Below, piece by piece: positions 9,865-55,902 of a DNA stretch of 64,000 nt. The stretch is from a virus (Duplodnaviria; Caudoviricetes). The notes below the pieces were generated by a model. The model had not been told where the DNA came from and did not search any database. It saw only the letters and a program-made list of their open reading frames with translations. Position 1 is the stretch's first letter, and every line of letters begins with the position of its first letter. Location: IMG/VR virus record IMGVR_UViG_3300028844_006787. The stretch is one strand, 5' to 3'. Made by a program: the position numbers and the translations under genes.

Positions 9865-10497
9865 CTAAGCATCAAAAGCATAATCAAAATTCTTTAAATC
9901 CTTTGAGTATTTTGTGGTAACAATATGATATAATTCACTATTGTAATAGCATCTATAATCATGGTGGAAATTACTATTTTTGCATTTAAGTTGACTACGA
10001 GCAACACCAATATTATCACATATATTATTAAAATCATCCTGAAGATTTTCGTATCTACCGACATAATCAACACAACATTTATCACCGTCATATACATAAT
10101 CTGACATACTTCTTATATGCTGACGAATACTACATTTTCGTTGTGTATCTTCATCCCAAGAACACTTAACAAAATCATCAAATGTGATTTCCGCAAAATC
10201 TTTATGTAAGTTTTTCCTCCAAAAAAATTCCGAAACTAGTCGGTCATATGGATTTCTAACAAAAGTAAAAGTATAGTATTTTTCACGGTAATTTGTGGGA
10301 ATATACTCATACTCAATATACTCATTTATGGTAAAATGTTGACGATATAATTTATGAACTTTATCCCATCCAATAGGAAAAATTTTTCGCCCATTGGATA
10401 GTGAATCGCATATACTACTCGTTGCGGTTTTAGGAATTTGAATGTAAATAAAATTGTTAGCGGAATCAATCATTAAAAAATTTTTCTCGATTTTCAA
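9865..10497 (-). CDS. sulfotransferase family 2 protein
   Basis: FIYIQIPKTATSSI (5'-PSB loop), FTFVRNPYDRLVS (3'-PB), VGRYENLQDDF. Confidence 0.9.
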   Translation of the reverse strand: MKIEKNFLMIDSANNFIYIQIPKTATSSICDSLSNGRKIFPIGWDKVHKLYRQHFTINEYIEYEYIPTNYREKYYTFTFVRNPYDRLVSEFFWRKNLHKDFAEITFDDFVKCSWDEDTQRKCSIRQHIRSMSDYVYDGDKCCVDYVGRYENLQDDFNNICDNIGVARSQLKCKNSNFHHDYRCYYNSELYHIVTTKYSKDLKNFDYAFDA

Positions 10498-11161
10498 ATA
10501 GTTTTAAATGAAAAATATTGGGTCTTTTATATAAAAAAGAATACTCACAAGATTTTCCTTTATTTGCTGAATGTGGTATATTTTCATTGATTTGCACCAT
10601 GTTGTTGATGGTAGATTTTATAGCATCATCGGTATCATATAACTCACATAATGTATTGTGTATTGTAAATAATTTCCACTCATAATCATGGTTCGTGTAT
10701 TTAGATATAAACAAATTCTTCCATGATTTTATTAAATGATCATTCGGATTATTATTGGTAATATACCAACTTGTTGTTTCTTTATTTCCTTTGTCTGTAA
10801 TACTTCTTGGAACAAATCTATATGTAAAAAAATTCGTTTCATTCACTGTATTAAAAAAAATTTCCTCGAATTTTTGATTGCAATACACACTTGCATCTGT
10901 CCAAGTTCCACCATATTTTTCTAGTAAAATCAAACGAAGCAAATCTGATTTTGCCTGAATTCTACGATAAGGAGAGTTGTTTATTATATCATAATACTCG
11001 GGTGCATATTCTTTTATATTATCATCGTGTAATAATATAAAGTTCTTGTGGTGACTATTTTTTAACCAAGAATTATAGCAGATACTATTTTTTGTATCAT
11101 TCATTAAATTGTCAATTCCTTGAAACCAACACATCCATATAATATGATTATCCAAGTTCAT
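10466..11161 (-). CDS. capsular polysaccharide synthesis protein / GT32-like glycosyltransferase
   Basis: IWMCWFQG, KSDLLRLILLEKYGGTWTDA motif. Confidence 0.85.
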   Translation of the reverse strand: MNLDNHIIWMCWFQGIDNLMNDTKNSICYNSWLKNSHHKNFILLHDDNIKEYAPEYYDIINNSPYRRIQAKSDLLRLILLEKYGGTWTDASVYCNQKFEEIFFNTVNETNFFTYRFVPRSITDKGNKETTSWYITNNNPNDHLIKSWKNLFISKYTNHDYEWKLFTIHNTLCELYDTDDAIKSTINNMVQINENIPHSANKGKSCEYSFLYKRPNIFHLKLFENREKFFND

Positions 11162-11690
11162 AACCTAATTTCTTAAAGTCTTTATAGTACATATCACCTA
11201 CAATTTTCATCGTCTCGTTGGTATAATAATCAATATATGATGTATGATTTGTTTTATTGATATGAACATTTGCATTTTGCATATTGAATTTGTTGAGTAA
11301 ATTATTTAAATCATTTTCATAGTTTTCAAGTTTTCCCACAAAATTTATGTCGTTTGGAAAAAGTGTAGATTGCAACCGAATATGTCTATCACACGAATTC
11401 AAATCAAGATTCCTTATTTCATAAATAAATTCTGTAAAACTATTACAATGACGGTACGAATATAATCCACCTTTGGTTTTATTAACAATTTTGTCTATAT
11501 ATGCAGAAAGCAATCTATCAAATGGATTTCTAACAAATGCCCATGAATAGTAACTTTGGTAATTATGAATTATACTTCTAAATTTTACCGGTTGAAACTC
11601 AAAAATATTAAACATACTTCGTGTCGCACATTTAGGCACTATAAAGTAAATAAACTTATTTTGCTCGTTAACTTGGTATAAATATTTCAT
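11148..11690 (-). CDS. sulfotransferase family 2 protein
   Basis: FIVPKCATRSM, AFVRNPFDRLLSAY, DRHIRLQ, VGKLEN. Confidence 0.9.
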   Translation of the reverse strand: MKYLYQVNEQNKFIYFIVPKCATRSMFNIFEFQPVKFRSIIHNYQSYYSWAFVRNPFDRLLSAYIDKIVNKTKGGLYSYRHCNSFTEFIYEIRNLDLNSCDRHIRLQSTLFPNDINFVGKLENYENDLNNLLNKFNMQNANVHINKTNHTSYIDYYTNETMKIVGDMYYKDFKKLGYELG

Positions 11691-16938: not shown

Positions 16939-17520
16939 TTATTGCTCAAATTTATAGTGCTTCATTTCTATAACTTCTTTTTCTGAATCAGCAATCTTTT
17001 TTATTAATTCTGGAGTTAATCCTCTACGTATTTCGTCTTTAAAATTTTTTATATATTTATCTTTTCTGGTGCCAATGGGTATATTAATATTTAATTTGTT
17101 TAGAACAAAACTAAGATCTTCTGTGATGTTTTCAATTGAACCAATAAAATCTAATAGTTTACCATCACGATATATGTAATCTTTAAACTGATTTTCCTCA
17201 AGTGTTTTTAGAATACTCTCATCACTATCAACATTTTCCAAATTTTTACCCTTTAAAATATGATTTTTTCTCATATTAACCCATGATATCATTCGTTCCC
17301 ACGGATTTCTAACAAAAGTAAACCAATAATAATCATTGGGGTCTTTGTTTATACTTTTAATGTAGTTGGATGCTTGAGTTGAATTCCAATGTCTTAGTTT
17401 TAAGGATGGGTGAGTTTTAGTTTGAACATCAGCATATTCGGTTAATGTTTTTTCTCTAAATCCTGATCCAGTTTTTGGTGGATTTAGGCAGACGAATTTA
17501 TATTTATGTGATAATATCAT
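16939..17520 (-). CDS. sulfotransferase family 2 protein
   Basis: MILSHKYKFVCLNPPKTGS, FTFVRNPWERMIS. Confidence 0.88.
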   Translation of the reverse strand: MILSHKYKFVCLNPPKTGSGFREKTLTEYADVQTKTHPSLKLRHWNSTQASNYIKSINKDPNDYYWFTFVRNPWERMISWVNMRKNHILKGKNLENVDSDESILKTLEENQFKDYIYRDGKLLDFIGSIENITEDLSFVLNKLNINIPIGTRKDKYIKNFKDEIRRGLTPELIKKIADSEKEVIEMKHYKFEQ

Positions 17521-39368: not shown

Positions 39369-39962
39369 TTATTCTCCGAATTTATAACCAAAATACTCAA
39401 TGTCTTTTGCGTATTTTTCCGCAACGATTTGTTTTGTTTCGTCATCATAGTATTCGGTATAATGTTTGTGTTTTGTTGCATTTTCGTGTGGAAGTTTTTG
39501 ATGTGGAATTCCAATTTTATCACACACAATATTAAAGTCTTCTTGGAGATTTTCAAAACGACCAATGAAATCAACTCCTATATTATCGTATTCGTCAGTA
39601 ATCCAATCAAGTTGATTAAAGTAACTAAGTTTATCATCATCAGTTTTAATCATGCTTAAATATTTTTTAAAAGATAAATACTCACAATTATTTCGTGTAG
39701 CAAATTTATACGCAGATACACTTCTATCATAAGGATTTCTTACAAATGTAAATTTGAAATAATCAAAGGGATTTCCGTTGCATTGTGAAAATAAGTTAAT
39801 TTGTCGTTTATTACTGAATCCATCGTACGGTAAAATTTTATGAAGCATTTCATGTTGTTGATCATCTTCACTATCGGAATATTTTTGCAATGCAGTTTCA
39901 ATACTTGTTCCTGCAGTTTTATTTATATGCACGAAAATAAATTTATGTGAATGACTTATCAT
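39369..39962 (-). CDS. sulfotransferase family 2 protein
   Basis: MISHSHKFIFVHINKTAGTSI, FTFVRNPYDRSVS, IGRFENLQEDF. Confidence 0.92.
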   Translation of the reverse strand: MISHSHKFIFVHINKTAGTSIETALQKYSDSEDDQQHEMLHKILPYDGFSNKRQINLFSQCNGNPFDYFKFTFVRNPYDRSVSAYKFATRNNCEYLSFKKYLSMIKTDDDKLSYFNQLDWITDEYDNIGVDFIGRFENLQEDFNIVCDKIGIPHQKLPHENATKHKHYTEYYDDETKQIVAEKYAKDIEYFGYKFGE

Positions 39963-39982
39963 AATATTAATATAAATATTAT

Positions 39983-41737
39983 TTAGAACGAATAATGCTT
40001 TTTATCAAACCACGTTTTCCACATCTTGATTACTTTCATACTTTCACAATTACAATGCTTAGTAATTTCTCCGACTCCTTGAATGATTGTATGATTACCA
40101 CACCAAACATCTCCTTCAACGACCAAGTCCAAAAATTTTCCATTGTCGTATCCAATTGTAATCATTCGTGATGTTTTACCAAACTTTCGTAAAGTACGAC
40201 TATTAGCAATTATACCACGAAACATATAAACATTCGGTTCATCTTCGTATGATTCAAGAAAACATCCAGGTAAAAACTCTTCACCTGTCCACCATCCTTG
40301 TTTAAGAAATTGATCTTTGCTACTCATAAAATGGTTTTTGTTCGGAACAAATACACCTGCTACTTGTGCTTCACGAATATGAACCCATTTACGATAACTG
40401 CTTTGATTGTTTTTCAAAGTGCTTTCCCAAAACTTTTCTGCGTGATAATGTTTGTTGTATGCTAATGCCCATACAAGTTGACCATACGCAAGAGCATGAC
40501 CTTTGCAAAACGAGTATTTATCTAGTTCATTAAGTTGATTATATTGTGTTTTGTCGTTGAATGTTCCTGATGTATTGGTAAGCATATTTGCATCGTAGGT
40601 TTTTTGAAACTCTTCTATGCGTGTTATTTCGTTTCGTTTGAATGCTCTGCGATAAGCATCAGCAGTTCCATAATCACATCCAAGAACTTCCGCAATATAA
40701 TAAATGCTATCATCGTCATATATCAACATACGATTTTTATTACCAGATGTATAATCTTCAAAGTAATTCTTTTTGCGTTTGTTATCAGCAGCCGCAGGAC
40801 GAATTATAGCAAGACACAATGCAAGGTCTTTGTAACTTTTAGGTTGAATTGCCATAACGCATTTACGCATCGTTCTTGATTCTGCTTGTGTTAATCCAAT
40901 AACATCTCCGTTTCTGAATAACTCTTCTACATTTTCATCGTTAACAGGATATTCGTGTACTAATTTTTTATCTATATCCCACAACTGACTTAATCCACGG
41001 TTACAAAGCAAATCTATTTTAATTAAATTTTGTTTCTCTACATCGTATTTTGTAAGTTTGATTTGATTGTCTTTGAGAATATCCTTTTCAGGCACTTTAT
41101 CATCATATACAATGATTCCACCACAATGCAAAGACCAATGACAATGTTCTCCGATCAATTTATCTGCTTCTGCATAAATCTTGGCAACATCATTTGGATC
41201 AAGAAAATAATGCTCCACTTTAAAATTTTTCGGAAGTTGTTTACGAAATCCGTATTTACGCATTACTTCTCGCAACGCAGTTTTCTCGGAATACTTTACA
41301 TCGTTGCTGATTCTTGCAACACGATTCGGATACTTTTCATATAAATGCTTTAATATTTCATCACGATAATAATGTGGAACATCTAAATCAATATCAGGTT
41401 GATCGTCACGATGAAAATTCATAAATCGTGCTAATGCCATATTCTCTTTCACAGGATCAATAGATGTAATACCAAGCAAATAACAAACTAAACTACAAGC
41501 ACCACTTCCACGCAAAACGTGCGGAATATTCTGTGAACGCATATAACCAACAATATAAGTTACTTGCTCGAAGCATTGAATAAAGTTCTTTTGCTGAATA
41601 ATATCAAATTCTTCACACAAACGATTTTCGTAAGTTTCGTCCCACTTTACTTCATTTACAAAATGCTCACACAAAGCACGAATATGTTCATCGTAATTCT
41701 CTACACAAGAATTTACAGTTTTAGGAAGAATAAGCAT
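39983..41737 (-). CDS. dnaE: family C DNA polymerase (DnaE alpha-like), lacking PHP domain
   Basis: RGSGACSLVCYLLGITSIDPV, PDIDLDV, HCGGIIV, KIDLL, IRPA, YSFCKGHA. Confidence 0.92.
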   Translation of the reverse strand: MLILPKTVNSCVENYDEHIRALCEHFVNEVKWDETYENRLCEEFDIIQQKNFIQCFEQVTYIVGYMRSQNIPHVLRGSGACSLVCYLLGITSIDPVKENMALARFMNFHRDDQPDIDLDVPHYYRDEILKHLYEKYPNRVARISNDVKYSEKTALREVMRKYGFRKQLPKNFKVEHYFLDPNDVAKIYAEADKLIGEHCHWSLHCGGIIVYDDKVPEKDILKDNQIKLTKYDVEKQNLIKIDLLCNRGLSQLWDIDKKLVHEYPVNDENVEELFRNGDVIGLTQAESRTMRKCVMAIQPKSYKDLALCLAIIRPAAADNKRKKNYFEDYTSGNKNRMLIYDDDSIYYIAEVLGCDYGTADAYRRAFKRNEITRIEEFQKTYDANMLTNTSGTFNDKTQYNQLNELDKYSFCKGHALAYGQLVWALAYNKHYHAEKFWESTLKNNQSSYRKWVHIREAQVAGVFVPNKNHFMSSKDQFLKQGWWTGEEFLPGCFLESYEDEPNVYMFRGIIANSRTLRKFGKTSRMITIGYDNGKFLDLVVEGDVWCGNHTIIQGVGEITKHCNCESMKVIKMWKTWFDKKHYSF

Positions 41738-48979: not shown

Positions 48980-49061
48980 ATCATGCAAAATGTGTGTTTT
49001 CGGAAAAAATATAACCAATATAGAATTAAAACAAGTTTTTTGCATGATAGATCATGCAAAA
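48980..49061. repeat. ATCATGCAAAA three copies, two forming a palindrome
   Basis: TTTTGCATGAT-AG-ATCATGCAAAA at 49038-49061 plus half-site at 48980-48990. Confidence 0.85.
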
Positions 49062-49067
49062 TGTATA

Positions 49068-49754
49068 TCATTGAAACTTACTTCCTTTCAGATTTCTTAA
49101 ACCAACATAGTGACCTTCATAGTGACCTTGAAATCCACTTACATCTATTGTTTTAAAACTTAGTTTCTGAAAGTTTTGTATTAAAGTACCGTTTTTTACA
49201 TCAAACCACTTTGCACTAAACGATATATCGTCTTTATCACCCGTGGTGGATTCTTCATCGTAAACACACCTAACACTTGAATGCCATAACTGAAAGAAAC
49301 CAATTGGTATTTTGTTGCGTGACGGACGAAATTTCATTTTACGATTAGAACTCATTTCAATTCTTGCTGATGAACGATGTCCATATTCCATAGTTTTCCC
49401 ACGAGTTGTAACTCTATCGCATTTATACATTTTACTTTTATCTTTACACTCAGTTTCACATATTTCACGAAAATTAAATGGAAGTAATTGATCTGCATCT
49501 ATATGAAGCAACCAATCGTTTTTATCAAGAACTTTAAGAGCATCGTTTATTGCACGACCTTTAGCAAACTGAGCATTATCAAATACTCGTTCACTTAAAA
49601 TATAATTAATATCGTTATTCTCACAAACTTTGATTGTTTCTGTATCACTTTCGTGGGTTGCAATTACCCAATTATCAAGTCTTTGATTGTTTGTTACTAT
49701 CTTTTTAAGTTTGTCGGCAAAATCTATACAAACGGTTACTGCTTCAATCTTCAT
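49068..49754 (-). CDS. GT2-like (GT-A) glycosyltransferase (start revised to MKIEAV)
   Basis: AVTVCIDFAD, FAKGRAIN, WLLHIDAD (DxD), GFFQLWH. Confidence 0.75.
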   Translation of the reverse strand: MKIEAVTVCIDFADKLKKIVTNNQRLDNWVIATHESDTETIKVCENNDINYILSERVFDNAQFAKGRAINDALKVLDKNDWLLHIDADQLLPFNFREICETECKDKSKMYKCDRVTTRGKTMEYGHRSSARIEMSSNRKMKFRPSRNKIPIGFFQLWHSSVRCVYDEESTTGDKDDISFSAKWFDVKNGTLIQNFQKLSFKTIDVSGFQGHYEGHYVGLRNLKGSKFQ

Positions 49755-51306
49755 TTGCAATCTCCGAAATTGCAACTAAATCAAGTTTACCTGAAGCAAG
49801 CACAGGAATTTTATCTATAAGTTTATGTATTTTTGGTGTCCATAGATTACCAAACTTTTCTGATAATGATTTGCTAATATGCTCAAGAGAGATTGGTGAT
49901 GATGTAATAACCACAAGTTGCTCACCTTTGCTTTCGTGTGGAATACCTGTAACTGCAACTTTAATATCATCTTCTTCGTTCCAATTCATTAAATTGATTA
50001 TTTCATGCTCAATCGTTTCGTGTGGAATCATTTCTCCACCTATTTTACTGAATCTTGATAAACGACCTTCTATATGCAAATATCCACCTTCATCTATGCG
50101 ACCTATGTCACCTGTAATCAACCATCCGTCTTTTAATACTTCTTGTGTTTTTTCTCTATCATTTAAATACCCACCGAATATATTAGGACCACGAAAGCAC
50201 AATAATCCTGCATCTAGTCTTTTTAATGGTTCACCGGTTTCTGGTGATATTGTTTTTACAAAAATGTCAGGTAACAATCTTCCTACACTTCCGTGCTTTA
50301 CTTTGTATTTAGGAGAGTTTATAGATATTACAGGTGATGCTTCGGTAAGACCATATCCTTCAAGATACACGCAACTTGCGATATTCTCCCAATGCGATAT
50401 AAATTCTAGTTTACTTTTTTCTGCTCCTGCAATTACATACTCTAAACTATTCAATTTACGACTTGAACCTTTTTTTAGATATCCTCTTAAAAATGTAGGA
50501 GTTCCAAGAAGCACCGTTACCGATTCGTTTTCTATTGCAAGAAGTGTTTTGTTTATTTCCAATGGACTTGGTACTGTAACTATTTTAATGTTGTTTAGTA
50601 TGCTAAACCACATAGTAATCGTAAATCCAAAACTATGAAACAATGGTAAATTCGCAAGTATCTTGGAATGCTCAGGAAATTCGTGTATTTGTGATATTCC
50701 TTTTATGTTACTTCGTATATTATCGTGACTAAGCATTACACCTTTTGGTTTGCCACTGCTTCCACTTGTAAATAACAATGCAAGTTCTTCGTTGGTAGCA
50801 TACTGAGGAATATTCAATAGATATTTTGATATGTTTTTTGGTAGCGAATGAATAAACGCATATTTTAAACACAATAGTTTATTTGCTTTATATGATTTAA
50901 GTAGTGTATCAATATTAATGGCATTTTCCCACGGAAAATCTCCAAACTTTTCTCGCATCTTTGAAACGGTTAATATGCATCTTGTTCCTGAAAGTTGTAT
51001 ACAATGCTGATTGATTTCCGAAGACAACGAAAAGTTCATATTAACAGGAATCTTATTCGCAAGAACAACTGCAATATTTGCAATCATTCCAATGCCACTA
51101 CTCGGAATTGCAATGCCAATGCGTTCACACGTTTCTTTTTTAAGTCTTTTAGCAAGAGCAGATGCCATTACTAGCATTTGAAACTTGTTTATTCGTATAG
51201 GTTTATCAAGACTATAATCAACTAAATACTCGGATTTAGCATCATTTCTCAACGAATCATATACATCATTGGCAAAGTGTTTCACACTTATAACTGTATT
51301 GTACAT
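49744..51306 (-). CDS. aas: Aas-type acyl-[ACP] synthetase / AMP-binding domain, without acyltransferase domain
   Basis: LLFTSGSSGKPKGV, LPLFHSFG, GTPTFL, EGYGLTEASP, TGDIG, GRLSRFSKIGGEM, SGKLD. Confidence 0.85.
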   Translation of the reverse strand: MYNTVISVKHFANDVYDSLRNDAKSEYLVDYSLDKPIRINKFQMLVMASALAKRLKKETCERIGIAIPSSGIGMIANIAVVLANKIPVNMNFSLSSEINQHCIQLSGTRCILTVSKMREKFGDFPWENAINIDTLLKSYKANKLLCLKYAFIHSLPKNISKYLLNIPQYATNEELALLFTSGSSGKPKGVMLSHDNIRSNIKGISQIHEFPEHSKILANLPLFHSFGFTITMWFSILNNIKIVTVPSPLEINKTLLAIENESVTVLLGTPTFLRGYLKKGSSRKLNSLEYVIAGAEKSKLEFISHWENIASCVYLEGYGLTEASPVISINSPKYKVKHGSVGRLLPDIFVKTISPETGEPLKRLDAGLLCFRGPNIFGGYLNDREKTQEVLKDGWLITGDIGRIDEGGYLHIEGRLSRFSKIGGEMIPHETIEHEIINLMNWNEEDDIKVAVTGIPHESKGEQLVVITSSPISLEHISKSLSEKFGNLWTPKIHKLIDKIPVLASGKLDLVAISEIANED

Positions 51307-51332: not shown

Positions 51333-52616
51333 TTAAGCAAGTATCTTATTGATTATTTTACCATCGTGGGCAACCTTGAACGGACGACCACTTGGTGAAT
51401 AATGAGTTTTTTCTAATCTTAAACCAAGAGTATGAGCAATCGTCGCATTAAGGTCTTCTACGGATGCTCCTTCTTCTTCTATATAGTGTGCCCGTTTATC
51501 ACTAACTCCATATACACTTCCACCTTTAATGCCCCCTCCTGCAAGCAATGCACTAAATGCAGTAGGATGATGATCACGACCTACACGACCTGCTTTAACT
51601 TCAGGTGTTCTTCCGAATTCACTAGCAACAACAACCATTGTATCGTTTAGTTTGCCCCGTCTATCTAAATCCAATAATAATGCTGATAATCCTTGGTCAA
51701 GTGTAGCACCACGTGTTGCCATTCCACCGAATACATCATTGTGCATATCCCAACCACCAAGTTGTACTTCAACGAAACGTACACCGGTTTCCACCAAACG
51801 ACGTGCAAGCAAGCATCCTTGTCCAAAGTTATTGTCTCCATACAACTCACGTGTTGCTTCAGTTTCTTCACTTAAATCAAATGCTTTTAGATCGTTGCTA
51901 CTCATTAATTTTACAGCATCGTTATATAAATCAGTATAAGCACGAACTTGCTTTTGTGAATATTCATTCAAAAACATTTTGTTGAACTCTTTTGCAGTTG
52001 TTAAACGATCATCATAAAGATTCTGCTCAAGATAATCTGCTACACGTGAGTTTTGAATTCCACTACCAGGACGACCGATGGGAAGTGGTCCATGTTTGCT
52101 TTCAAGAAATCCTGCACCAAGAACATCACTTCCTCCGTTGATGCGTACATGAGCAGGAAGAGTTGCATTTAATTTACCTGATAAATGACTTACCCAACTA
52201 CCTAAAGTTGGATGTTTGATTGTTCCTCTGCGTTGATATGATGTATGAAGCAAGTAATTTGCTTGTTGGTGTGCTCCTTGATTACTTGTTAAACTACGAA
52301 TCAAAGAAGCATTGTGCATTTGCTTTGCAGTATTCGGCAACCAATGTCCTAATTGAATTCCATCGGCACTTGTTGAAATCGCAGTTGTTTCACCCATTAC
52401 ATCAGGATTCTCAGGTTTAGGATCAAATGTATCTACATGAGTCATTCCACCTGACATATACAAAAAGATTACATGACGAGCAGTAGGTACTTTTCCAGGT
52501 ACCTCAAACGCAAGTAAATCTTCCGTACTTAAAATAGCACCAACTCCTAAACAAGTTTTTGCTATTCCTTTAATAAAACTTCTTCTTGATAATTCGTCTT
52601 TTAATAGATTTTCCAT
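51333..52616 (-). CDS. DUF1501 family protein with Tat signal
   Basis: SRRSFIK twin-Arg; IFLYMSGGMTHVDTFDPK, FGQGCLLARRLVETGVRFVEV, GWDMH, EFGRTP, GRDH. Confidence 0.93.
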   Translation of the reverse strand: MENLLKDELSRRSFIKGIAKTCLGVGAILSTEDLLAFEVPGKVPTARHVIFLYMSGGMTHVDTFDPKPENPDVMGETTAISTSADGIQLGHWLPNTAKQMHNASLIRSLTSNQGAHQQANYLLHTSYQRRGTIKHPTLGSWVSHLSGKLNATLPAHVRINGGSDVLGAGFLESKHGPLPIGRPGSGIQNSRVADYLEQNLYDDRLTTAKEFNKMFLNEYSQKQVRAYTDLYNDAVKLMSSNDLKAFDLSEETEATRELYGDNNFGQGCLLARRLVETGVRFVEVQLGGWDMHNDVFGGMATRGATLDQGLSALLLDLDRRGKLNDTMVVVASEFGRTPEVKAGRVGRDHHPTAFSALLAGGGIKGGSVYGVSDKRAHYIEEEGASVEDLNATIAHTLGLRLEKTHYSPSGRPFKVAHDGKIINKILA

Positions 52617-52640
52617 GATATTTCTTTCTTTATAAGTATT

Positions 52641-54764
52641 TTATCGTATAAAAATGAATTCGTGTGAGTTCATAAGAATCCACGCAACGTGTCTTGCTCC
52701 GTTTGGTTCATCTATATACTTTTTGAGTAAACGCAGTTCGGCACTATTTGGTTTGCGATTTAGTATACTCATAAAAATGTCCTCAATTTTTCCTGTTTCA
52801 CGTTTTTCTTGTGCCATTTGTTTCATAAAGTCTGCGTTTTTGTTATTGATAATACGTTTTTCCACGAAACCATTCAGCAGATTAAGAACCTGTGGTGTTG
52901 TTGCTTCAAAGTTTGAGTTTTCAATAAGTGCTTTGTCACTTCCACCAAACTGACGAATAAGATGCCCACCAGGAGCAGGATAACCCACATAACTGCTTCT
53001 TATTAAATCACGATCTTTTAATTTCTTTGCTTCGTATTTACCTTCTGCTTCATTTAATTGCTGAACCACATCCGCAAGATTACGACTTGGTTTTTCTGTG
53101 TTTGCTAGATACTCTTTAAGTTCCGCAAAAATGTCACTTGCGTTTTGATCTTTGTAACGATCATAAACTGCTTGATACTTTTCATCGTAATTGCTCGGAA
53201 ATCGTTCAGGTGAATCAATATCATTATATACCAATGTTACCAATGAATCCCAAATTTGTTCTCCTGTCATTCTTTGAAGAGGAGGTCCTGCAAAGTAAAA
53301 TGTTTCGGGACTTGCATAATCATCTTTAACACTATCACGTGTAAATAAATCCATGCTATAAAGAACCCTCATAAATTCTTTTACATCATAATCAACCGAT
53401 GCCATAATTTTCTCAAGATAACTAAGTAGTTTCGGATTGCTTGACTCGGTGTTGTCGTTCATATCATCCACGGGTTCAATCAATCCAATTCCAAATGCTC
53501 GTTTCCATAAACGATTCACAATAACAGTAGTAAATCGTGGATTTGCTTCTGATGTAATCCATTCCGCAAATTGTTTGCGACTTTTAGGTAAATCAGTTCC
53601 TTGCTCAATTTTCAATGGTGGTGCAAATATTGCTTTCGCATGAAGTGTATCACCAGGTTTAGCATCATCTTCCATAAACGAATCATTAAGTTTGATTGTT
53701 CCTTTTCCAAGTTCATCGTCTAGTCCGTATCCAAGAATATCACGAATATAATTTCGATATTGTTGTAGTGTGTTATTTTCCGGTGATGTATCTTGACGAA
53801 CAAGACGATTAAATTCATTTACCAATTTAGAGTTTTCTTTGTATTGAACACGACTAACTCCGTCTGTGAATGCGGCCATTTCATAAAACTGCTTTTGTGT
53901 CCATTTATCAAATGGATGATTATGACACATAGCACATTCTAAACGAGTTCCAAGAAACACTTGTACCGTGTTTGCAAGGTTATCTAATGGCATACCACGA
54001 TCACGAAGATAAAAACCTATTGCTTCGTTGCCTGGTTCATAATAAGCACCTTCTGATGCAATTAGTTTTTGCACGAACTCATCAAACGGAGTATTATTGC
54101 GAATTTCATTGCGAACAAACTCACGATAACGAAATCCACTATTAATGTTTGTATCATTAAGTTTGTTTTGAATACGAAGAATATCACTATAATAATTCAA
54201 CTGATGACTAATATAACCTTCACTATTCAACAACTTATTGATTAGTTTGAGTTTATTTCCACGCATTTCATTTTTAAATTCATCTATTTCAGATTTACCA
54301 GGAATCCTACCTATTATTTTAAGATATGCTCTACGCATAAATGTATAATCATCAGTATCACGAGTTGGTCTTTGACGTTCACTACGAAGTTTCTCAAGAA
54401 CCAACGCATCTGCATAAGCCGCAAACTGCTTGATTTGCTTTTCTTTTAGTGGTCTTTCTAATTTAGGCACATTGTAATCTGCCGTCATATAATCATCTTT
54501 GATCATGCGTTGCGAAACTAAAGCAAGAGCATTTACATTTAAACGAAACAACTGCAAATCACCTTCTCGTTGAAACAATACAGATTCTCCGTCAAACTCG
54601 ATAACTTTACCGGTTTGCTCCTTTCCGTTGGCACTAATAATCGTAACTATCTTTCTTTCCTGAGATAGTTCATCAAGTTTATCTTTGTCAATTCTACTAC
54701 CCGACTCTGAATATACTGGAACACAAATCAATAGCAATGTTGCTATAAACGTAATATATTTCAT
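52641..54764 (-). CDS. DUF1549 (PSCyt2) + DUF1553 (PSD1) protein, secreted, with N-terminal SHD1-like domain
   Basis: FMRRAYLKIIGRIP, FLGTRLECAMCHNHPFDKWTQKQFY (CxxCH), NRLWKRAFGIGLIEPVDD, RMTGEQIWDS, W.LMNSHEF. Confidence 0.93.
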   Translation of the reverse strand: MKYITFIATLLLICVPVYSESGSRIDKDKLDELSQERKIVTIISANGKEQTGKVIEFDGESVLFQREGDLQLFRLNVNALALVSQRMIKDDYMTADYNVPKLERPLKEKQIKQFAAYADALVLEKLRSERQRPTRDTDDYTFMRRAYLKIIGRIPGKSEIDEFKNEMRGNKLKLINKLLNSEGYISHQLNYYSDILRIQNKLNDTNINSGFRYREFVRNEIRNNTPFDEFVQKLIASEGAYYEPGNEAIGFYLRDRGMPLDNLANTVQVFLGTRLECAMCHNHPFDKWTQKQFYEMAAFTDGVSRVQYKENSKLVNEFNRLVRQDTSPENNTLQQYRNYIRDILGYGLDDELGKGTIKLNDSFMEDDAKPGDTLHAKAIFAPPLKIEQGTDLPKSRKQFAEWITSEANPRFTTVIVNRLWKRAFGIGLIEPVDDMNDNTESSNPKLLSYLEKIMASVDYDVKEFMRVLYSMDLFTRDSVKDDYASPETFYFAGPPLQRMTGEQIWDSLVTLVYNDIDSPERFPSNYDEKYQAVYDRYKDQNASDIFAELKEYLANTEKPSRNLADVVQQLNEAEGKYEAKKLKDRDLIRSSYVGYPAPGGHLIRQFGGSDKALIENSNFEATTPQVLNLLNGFVEKRIINNKNADFMKQMAQEKRETGKIEDIFMSILNRKPNSAELRLLKKYIDEPNGARHVAWILMNSHEFIFIR

Positions 54765-54840
54765 CTTAATAAGTTATAATACCATAAATATATACAATTA
54801 TGACTTATTTTGCAACTTTTTTTGTTGCGTTACGACATTT

Positions 54841-55902
54841 TTACTTGAATTCTTTTTTAATTTTTGCTTCAGATGGATTTCTTAACTTTTTTCCGTTCGG
54901 TAAAACTACATTATGAAATGTCGTGGGATACCGATAAAAAGGTTTTCCATAAACACTATAACTTAATACAATAGAATTCTGAATAGTGAACTTACTTCCA
55001 TCTTCAAACTCAAATGACATTGTGTTGCGATTATGATTTCCGTCAACATTTACACCAATGCCACGACCACCAACAATCACACTAAGTTTCATTTTCATTT
55101 TGTAAACAAACTTTTCAACACCTTCTTTGGCATTTTGTTTTGCAGTATCTTTTAATATCTTTTTGTAATCTGATTTAAGTGTATACGCATATCCACCTCG
55201 TTCGTTACTATCATACTTGTTATCAAGAAAACGATTTAATATTTTGTTAAGATGATAATTTGATTTAGATTTATATAAATCGTAAGTGCTTGTGACTTTA
55301 TGCTTTTTTGCATCTTTTTGATATTGATCAATGATCATTTCATAATAATCTTCAAAGTTTTCTTGCAACTCTTTTTCAAATCCTTTACCGATTTTTTCAA
55401 GTTCTTCTTCAATTTCTTTGCTAATAGCACCTTTAGGTATACTTGGTTTATTTGATCCCACACCAATCTGACGTTTAACAACATCATTTTTCATTGCTTT
55501 TAAAGTAATCGCAATTTTTTCCCAAGGTTCACACGCAGTCATTGCATCTTTAACCATCTTACTTGCTCTAGGACCTCTGATTGTTCTTTTAAGTTGCTTT
55601 GCAGTTCTTTTAAGATATCCGGGAACATGAAGAACACTATTCGGAAAAGAATATTTGTATTCTTCTGTTTCACCTGCTTCTTTTTGTGCATTCCAAACCG
55701 TAAATTCGTTTGCTCCACTTAACCTAGATCCATTCGTTGCAATATCAAATGCACGTGAAACATCACTTTTGATTTTCTGAAATTGTGGATTTGGAATTTT
55801 TTGTCCTGATTTCCAATTCTGAACAAACTCTATCGAGTCTTTGTGTTTTGCATCAACCGTTTGAGATAATCGTATCTCGTTAACTATTCTCATGTATCTC
55901 AT
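54841..55902 (-). CDS. hypothetical early protein (353 aa)
   Basis: Leaderless after promoter 55912-55940; no motif recognised with confidence. Confidence 0.75.
   Translation of the reverse strand: MRYMRIVNEIRLSQTVDAKHKDSIEFVQNWKSGQKIPNPQFQKIKSDVSRAFDIATNGSRLSGANEFTVWNAQKEAGETEEYKYSFPNSVLHVPGYLKRTAKQLKRTIRGPRASKMVKDAMTACEPWEKIAITLKAMKNDVVKRQIGVGSNKPSIPKGAISKEIEEELEKIGKGFEKELQENFEDYYEMIIDQYQKDAKKHKVTSTYDLYKSKSNYHLNKILNRFLDNKYDSNERGGYAYTLKSDYKKILKDTAKQNAKEGVEKFVYKMKMKLSVIVGGRGIGVNVDGNHNRNTMSFEFEDGSKFTIQNSIVLSYSVYGKPFYRYPTTFHNVVLPNGKKLRNPSEAKIKKEFK

Follow-up and report, generated by a model that had tools for sequence, protein, structure and literature searches.

The stretch of DNA analysed here, called the window below, comprises 64,000 nucleotides of a virus (Duplodnaviria; Caudoviricetes; IMG/VR record IMGVR_UViG_3300028844_006787) and has a GC content of 31.5%. 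Two adjacent genes on its minus strand encode proteins with predicted export leaders: a PSCyt2 (DUF1549) plus PSD1 (DUF1553) protein of 707 amino acids (aa) at 52641..54764, hereafter the partner, and, beginning 24 nucleotides downstream of it, a DUF1501 protein of 427 aa at 51333..52616. DUF1501, PSCyt1, PSCyt2 and PSD1 have been described as a 'conserved genetic module' of Planctomycetota, Verrucomicrobiota and Lentisphaerota (Kamneva et al. 2012, PMC3542564; He et al. 2017, PMC5615132); these families are among the most expanded in Planctomycetota and Verrucomicrobiota, members of the Planctomycetes-Verrucomicrobia-Chlamydiae (PVC) bacteria, with dozens of copies per genome, and have been without a known function since 2004-2012 (PMC3542564, PMC5615132). 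Judged by its sequence, the pair in the window is a phage-borne, single-copy variant of this module that lacks PSCyt1 and bears an SHD1-like domain. A preliminary description had presented it as an intact, adjacent and exported pair carried by a phage, and this picture was borne out: both open reading frames (ORFs) are full length, both leaders can be read from the sequence, and the window is a phage contig in which a profile search of the encoded proteins recognized rIIA (phrog_612, 370 bits) and rIIB (235 bits), and which also encodes an ATP-dependent ligase, a DnaE-like polymerase, and UvdE plus a methyltransferase.

The DUF1501 protein covers the whole of the Pfam profile PF07394 (positions 1-390 of 390), with a score of 373.6 bits. 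A twin-arginine translocation (Tat) motif, S-R-R-S-F-I-K, occupies residues 10-16 (52569..52589, minus strand); S10-R11-R12-S13-F14 is followed by a hydrophobic stretch, and conservation in the phage copies is 90% or more at R11, R12 and F14. The AlphaFold2 (AF2) model (mean predicted local distance difference test, pLDDT, 88.2) has the core of the alkaline phosphatase/NPP/sulfatase superfamily. Foldseek returned S1 sulfatases, LtaS and alkaline phosphatases, and VIA-align gave Z values of 20.7 for ENPP6, 20.4 for PafA and the Xac NPP, and about 19 for S1 sulfatases, over spans of 245-277 residues; the structural neighbours include the lipid head-group enzymes ENPP6, ENPP7 and LtaS. At the profile level, the DUF1501 family matches the C-terminal metal-site region of sulfatases (E-value = 5e-4), and hhalign against Verrucomicrobial sulfatases gave 93% over 104 columns, placing the sulfatase S-D-N-G opposite E-F-G-R; the sulfatase S-D-[HN]-G signature thus appears with D-[HN]-G replaced by E-F-G. 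However, the formylglycine motif C/S-x-P-x-R is absent from the DUF1501 protein of the window and present in the Verrucomicrobial sulfatases that were run as controls, and neither Pfam Sulfatase nor Pfam Phosphodiest matched the protein. In a global hhalign, G-A-H116 lies at the formylglycine site, in an alignment of low confidence. So, although the fold and the metal-site region fit an S1 formylglycine sulfatase, that identity was rejected for want of the motif, and the protein is better regarded as a diverged member of the alkaline phosphatase superfamily than as a canonical sulfatase. The residues that are invariant or nearly so (H60, D62, D65, K67, H116, D290, H292, E333, R336, R347, D348 and H349) resemble a site that binds metal and ester; D62, D65, H116, D290, H292, D348 and H349 are those considered against the Asp/His bimetal ligand set of NPP and alkaline phosphatases. 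A search of the ESM Atlas with this protein gave only a weak lead, DUF1552/HXXSHH (score 0.82).

In the partner, PSCyt2 was recognized with 136 bits and PSD1 with 126 bits. Its leader is of the Sec type: read by eye, the partner and all its phage homologues begin with a basic residue and then a hydrophobic segment. The heme-attachment-type motif CxxCH is present as CAMCH at residues 277-281 (53922..53936, minus strand), and CA[MQR]CH was found in 28 of 28 phage rows and in all but 3 of the 67 cellular rows, and C277, C280 and H281 are invariant in alignment A4; the Sec export and the CAMCH motif proposed in the preliminary description both stand. In many cellular members of the family there is, in addition, a PSCyt1 cytochrome domain, which has a CxxCH of its own. 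No PSCyt1 match was found in the partner of the window, which has a single CxxCH, and because its nearest cellular relatives likewise lack PSCyt1, the missing domain is no bar to membership in the module.

The AF2 model of the partner (pLDDT 87.2, predicted template modelling score 0.87) is almost wholly helical. When the 707-aa model was searched whole by Foldseek and VIA-align, no solved fold was found for the helical body, which does not establish that the fold is new; a weak resemblance to DUF4214 and phycobilisome-linker repeats was seen in the C-terminal part. At the N terminus, residues 27-92 (54489..54686, minus strand) form a small beta-barrel of the SHD1/Sm-like type in the model, with VIA-align Z values of 7.3 to the SHD1 structure 2hbp and 5.6 to Hfq, and Foldseek also returned Hfq rows for it. 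Pfam SHD1 matches were obtained for 6 of 42 family members; by alignment occupancy the barrel is present in all phage copies and not in the nearest cellular copies. Searches of NCBIfam yielded nothing for DUF1501 or the partner except a weak Hfq-like match, and the ESM Atlas yielded nothing for the partner.

The pair is widespread among phages. A search of IMG/VR, as suggested in the preliminary description, disclosed 20 loci with DUF1501 at 64-72% identity and seven loci that were reached via the partner (48-52% identity), all on viral contigs of up to 222 kb, which adds to the phage context of the pair. Among the matches listed from a large protein collection, at least 120 metagenome proteins stand at 70-97% identity. 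Contigs of relatives were obtained from JGI, ENA/TARA, Logan and NCBI, and share the order ORF of about 350 aa, PSCyt2/PSD1, DUF1501; in every viral locus fetched (at least 27), the PSCyt2/PSD1 gene lies upstream of DUF1501. No match for the pair was found in GenBank/INPHARED phage records by DNA or protein search, PHROGs has no family for either protein, the PADLOC defence-system models matched neither of them nor the upstream ORF, and our literature search found no paper describing a phage copy of the pair.

Some phage relatives carry more than one copy. L011 (6628-11272) and L018 have one PSCyt2/PSD1 gene followed by two tandem DUF1501 genes (425 and 423 aa). In three loci, a second, distantly related pair directly follows the first (L033:9106-12913, L034:6088-10314 and L035:3470-7792); it consists of a DUF1501 protein of 456-488 aa and a PSCyt2/PSD1 protein of 851 aa, and is followed by a gene for an exported HMA protein of 92 aa with a CPSC motif. 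Near relatives (85-88% identity) also occur on very long contigs, namely L028 (ENA ERZ28548097) of 569,543 bp and others of 566, 493, 398 and 318 kb. Contigs typical of the clade are 200-260 kb long, and the longer ones may represent either phage genomes of very large size or concatemers from long-read assembly.

A locus of this kind could have arisen by chimeric assembly, or the pair could be a recent, decaying host fragment that the phage carries as a neutral passenger. The total GC content of the pair, 36.4%, is slightly above the 31.5% of the window, and nothing else was found that favours such an explanation. On the other hand, the genes at both junctions are reproduced in independent assemblies from JGI, ENA/TARA and NCBI, so that the pair is not chimeric, and its ORFs are full length. 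Between close relatives (dS 0.8-1.0), the ratio of non-synonymous to synonymous substitution rates (dN/dS) is 0.11-0.13 for DUF1501 and 0.14-0.15 for the partner; the retention in phage that had been proposed is therefore seen as purifying selection (0.11-0.15) across a large phage clade. The GC contents at third codon positions (GC3) of the two genes, 0.19 and 0.23, match those of the phage core genes (0.21-0.26 for rIIA, rIIB, the ligase and the DnaE-like gene) and lie below those of cellular homologues (0.37-0.75), in agreement with the earlier remark that both genes are AT-ameliorated, and the phage copies are monophyletic. The artefact or passenger explanation, to which we give next to no probability, is refuted by the assemblies, the dN/dS ratios, GC3 and the phylogeny. 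In short, the pair is host-derived, encoded in a phage genome, conserved in related phages and under purifying selection, as is characteristic of auxiliary genes.

The cellular homologues were scanned in one genome per prokaryote species, and the best 80 loci were retained. The top DUF1501 matches among them belong to Verrucomicrobiota and Planctomycetota (45-52% identity), with Bacteroidota at 33-34%; the best cellular match is 49-53% identical and never exceeds 53%. The DUF1501 tree unites all 29 phage rows in a single clade (100% support), which lies inside a 61-row clade (99%) that otherwise contains Verrucomicrobiota and Planctomycetota only. A mixture-model tree that included the nearest representatives from 1.84 billion proteins gave the same placement, with a stem of 0.43 substitutions per site to the phage clade and its exact sister not settled. 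In the PSCyt2/PSD1 tree, the phage copies again form one clade (100%), which is sister (92%) to a Verrucomicrobiales group that includes Roseibacillus and Akkermansiaceae UBA4145. The order PSCyt2/PSD1, DUF1501 also occurs in PVC loci (L036-L070 and L136), and this identity of gene order indicates that the pair moved as a unit; the long stem and the cellular identities of at most 53% indicate that the capture is old. The sequences thus support a PVC donor, most likely a member of the Verrucomicrobiota, from which the pair was captured as a unit long ago, and the phylogenies of both genes agree with the preliminary description in placing the closest homologues in PVC bacteria. In some phages, the second DUF1501 paralogue falls among Verrucomicrobiales (95%), on the other main branch of the tree, and so points to a separate capture event.

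The transcription signals and the neighbours of the pair are as follows. The gap of 24 nucleotides before DUF1501 favours co-transcription with the partner gene over a promoter of its own. A candidate sigma-70-like promoter, TTGCAA-N17-TATATT, which matches nine of 12 consensus positions, is located at 54787..54815 (minus strand), within the 76-nucleotide spacer before the PSCyt2/PSD1 gene, and is conserved in the close relatives L028, L030 and L033. A TAYTTAT motif upstream of each gene had been taken as a sign of phage control. The motif is indeed present (52632-52638 and 54784-54790), but its 61 matches in the window compare with 66.9 +/- 8.1 expected by chance, so that it carries no weight as a control motif; the 24-nucleotide gap also argues against a separate DUF1501 promoter, and control by this motif was abandoned. 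The longer conserved TATATATTTA was likewise rejected as a control motif, since it is not enriched (37 matches against 29 +/- 5.9).

An acyl-ACP synthetase (Aas)-like AMP-binding enzyme is encoded at 49744..51306 (minus strand), 26 nucleotides downstream of DUF1501, in the same orientation and separable from the pair; it was recognized by Pfam AMP-binding and by the C-terminal part of NCBIfam PRK08633 (462 bits). Its best match among 201 Verrucomicrobiota genomes (467 bits, 47%) is well above that among 301 Bacteroidota genomes (264 bits, 34%), and its best matches sit in small Verrucomicrobiota genomes of about 2 Mb. It adjoins the pair in the window and in L030-32 only, and was not accepted as a core part because this adjacency is restricted to the sub-clade of the window. 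A stand-alone Aas-like gene in a phage hints at fatty-acid recycling during infection. The end of this gene is overlapped by a GT2-like gene (49068..49775, minus strand; weak match to Glyco_tranf_2_4), which is the last of the co-oriented block and has a homologue adjoining the second pair in L034 and L035. Just past its stop codon lies a terminator-like hairpin (49038..49061, minus strand) with a 10-bp stem followed by a T-run. Upstream of the pair lies a conserved ORF of 353 aa (54841..55902, minus strand), whose homologues in L028 and L030-34 (74-91% identity) are placed in the same way. As the ORF lacks a leader and belongs to no family of Pfam, PHROGs, NCBIfam or PADLOC, it was treated as a synteny anchor and not as part of the module. 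The exported 92-aa HMA protein with the CPSC motif, which adjoins the pair in some phage relatives, was also rejected as a core part, as it occurs in only six phage loci, in none of the cellular loci and not in the window. The pair is thus the only constant element across the phage clade, with HMA, Aas-like and GT2-like genes as variable neighbours.

Elsewhere in the window, four Sulfotransfer_2-family genes (9865-10497, 11148-11690, 16939-17520 and 39369-39962) and one Caps_synth glycosyltransferase gene (10466-11161) are spread along the sequence. The DnaE-like polymerase (39983-41737, minus strand) is short (584 aa); its best match among GenBank phages is that of an uncultured 484-kb phage, LR756508.1 (43.5% identity), and the next matches are DnaE-like genes of actinophages (26-27%).

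The preliminary description had also taken the pair to indicate a PVC host. A PVC donor is upheld by the trees, but the inference to the present host is weakened by the age of the capture (a stem of 0.43 and identities of at most 53%) and by the difference in GC content: candidate donors mostly have 46-60%, compared with 31.5% in the phage. These same features, the GC gap and the long stem, would suit a phage with genes of PVC origin that now infects another group, e.g. low-GC marine Flavobacteriaceae, and a relative of 83% identity (L034; NCBI NHCV02000064.1, GCA_002168005.2) is in fact filed in the metagenome-assembled genome 'Flavobacteriaceae bacterium TMED42'. However, that contig is only 11.5 kb long and has pure phage synteny, so that mis-binning is the simpler reading. 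Moreover, the Bacteroidota DUF1501 proteins, at 33-34% identity, form a distant clade, the neighbouring Aas-like gene matches Verrucomicrobiota best, and the second DUF1501 captured by relatives is again Verrucomicrobiales-like. On the phage synteny of the TMED42 contig and the distance of the Bacteroidota copies, Flavobacteriaceae were also rejected as the source of the genes. Large phages can greatly exceed their hosts in AT content, as phiKZ does, which diminishes the weight of the GC gap.

The closest non-phage DUF1501 (49% identity) comes from a marine organism of 39% GC, represented by L136 (ENA ERZ28548078, 686,334 bp) and L137; the organism was met in 279 blocks of the protein collection, with contigs of more than 1 Mb in 10 blocks. 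Its pair has PSCyt1-LRR, DUF7133 and DUF1080-type genes as neighbours, a context of PVC type, so a marine PVC lineage of lower GC content exists as a candidate host, which also speaks against a host outside the PVC group. Such a host seems improbable to us, and a PVC, i.e. Verrucomicrobial, host is likely on the gene sequences.

We read the pair as a genuine auxiliary module of a large marine phage, composed of two exported proteins, and consider it fairly probable that these act in the periplasm as a unit that hydrolyses phospho- or sulfo-esters; from the structure models, a periplasmic two-protein module for ester hydrolysis is the most likely reading. Our confidence is high for the general reading and low for the specific chemistry. 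One promoter upstream of PSCyt2/PSD1 would probably drive the pair together with the Aas-like and GT2-like genes. The partner would be exported unfolded via Sec, as periplasmic attachment of haem c to a CxxCH protein would require, and DUF1501 would be exported folded via Tat, probably with its metal already loaded. Both proteins would then act together in the periplasm, DUF1501 as the catalytic subunit, a metallo-hydrolase of the alkaline phosphatase/NPP/sulfatase fold with conserved Asp, His and Arg residues and no formylglycine, and the helical CxxCH partner by binding or presenting the substrate or by providing a centre with haem or metal. The bond cleaved in the infected cell may be a phospho- or sulfo-ester in an organic periplasmic substrate, and the benefit may be a limiting nutrient for a very large phage genome, or the processing of envelope or imported glycans.

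Several points weigh against this hydrolase reading. The nearly tied Z values make phosphodiesterase, phosphatase and sulfatase inseparable by fold search of the model, and no canonical nucleophile was found in DUF1501, where the C/S-x-P-x-R motif is missing and the confident sulfatase alignment covers the C-terminal third only. The haem on the CxxCH of the partner is putative, and no cytochrome fold was detected when the 707-aa model was searched whole. The promoter is a candidate only, since such matches occur at chance density in an AT-rich region, and scavenging of sulfate is an unlikely benefit because seawater is rich in it. Finally, the pairing of a Tat-exported enzyme with a CxxCH protein would suit a redox enzyme too.

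The last point leads to a periplasmic oxidoreductase, in which the Tat-exported DUF1501 would be catalytic and the Sec-exported CxxCH protein would serve it as c-type cytochrome, exchanging electrons with the respiratory chain of the host, so that the phage boosts the energy supply of the host. The division of labour between Tat and Sec, together with the invariant CxxCH, resembles two-subunit periplasmic dehydrogenases. In addition, the PSCyt1 domain of many cellular members brings a second CxxCH, and the metal-binding HMA protein with CPSC adjoins the pair in some phage relatives. Electron transport was also the reading of Kamneva et al. 2012 (PMC3542564). However, DUF1501 shares its fold with metallo-hydrolases and transferases, for which no redox cofactor site is known, PSCyt1 is missing from the phage copies and their nearest cellular relatives alike, and no cytochrome fold was detected in the partner model searched whole. 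We therefore regard an oxidoreductase as unlikely, though not implausible.

The pair could also serve to edit the envelope or receptors, by trimming, on the infected cell, surface glycans that bear sulfate or phosphate, or lipid head groups, for superinfection exclusion or virion release, within a sulfated-glycan programme of the phage's own. The four Sulfotransfer_2 genes and the capsule-type glycosyltransferase in the window would fit such a programme, as would the presence of ENPP6, ENPP7 and LtaS among the top structural neighbours and that of an Aas-like lipid-recycling gene and a GT2-like gene in the same co-oriented block. Those neighbours, however, vary across the phage clade, as does the HMA gene, and the pair alone is constant; cellular pairs occur in unrelated contexts, and DUF1501 has no sulfatase nucleophile motif. 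Editing of the envelope as the purpose of the pair is accordingly doubtful in our estimation.

A bolder proposal, for which we claim some possibility but well short of an even chance, is that cosmopolitan, very large marine phages use a minimal, single-copy complex of a haem- or metal-protein and a DUF1501 hydrolase, which would reprogramme digestion and scavenging in the Verrucomicrobial periplasm or strip sulfated or phosphorylated glycans from the surface, with the SHD1-like barrel retargeting the complex. If true, this would be the first assignable function for the DUF1501/PSCyt family, which is abundant in PVC genomes and has been an orphan for about 20 years. Strong selection on a single pair in the phage suggests that the two proteins suffice as a unit whose activity pays off within one infection cycle, and the pair may serve as a minimal construct with which to attempt heterologous expression, screens for activity and co-structure work. 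The pair also represents a new class of exported auxiliary genes of abundant marine large phages and, with the Aas-like gene, offers a clue to the host (Verrucomicrobiota) for a phage clade with no cultured member.

Compared with the PVC module, the phage pair has the same Pfam domains in the same order, the same division into Tat and Sec leaders and the CxxCH motif, and its sequences nest inside PVC copies in the trees. It differs in being phage-encoded, in forming a phage-only clade on a long stem and in being fully AT-ameliorated. The phage has one copy (two in some relatives), whereas one Verrucomicrobial genome has 63 DUF1501 candidates, by a first look in which four were scored; the phage version is also without PSCyt1 and carries the N-terminal SHD1/Sm-like barrel that the nearest cellular copies lack. 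With NPP/ENPP enzymes, PafA, S1 sulfatases and LtaS/EptA, the DUF1501 protein shares the core alpha/beta fold (Z 18-21 over about 245-277 residues), and with S1 sulfatases also the profile-level match to the C-terminal metal-site region. Unlike these members of the alkaline phosphatase superfamily, it has no match to Pfam Sulfatase or Phosphodiest, no C/S-x-P-x-R, E-F-G-R in place of S-D-[HN]-G, and an invariant His116 near the nucleophile position in an alignment of low confidence. The pstS and phoA genes of cyanophages are phage auxiliary genes for nutrient acquisition, and the present case resembles them as a host-derived, exported product under selection in marine phages with a plausible nutrient benefit; it is distinct in belonging to another family and another host group, and in being a module of two proteins.

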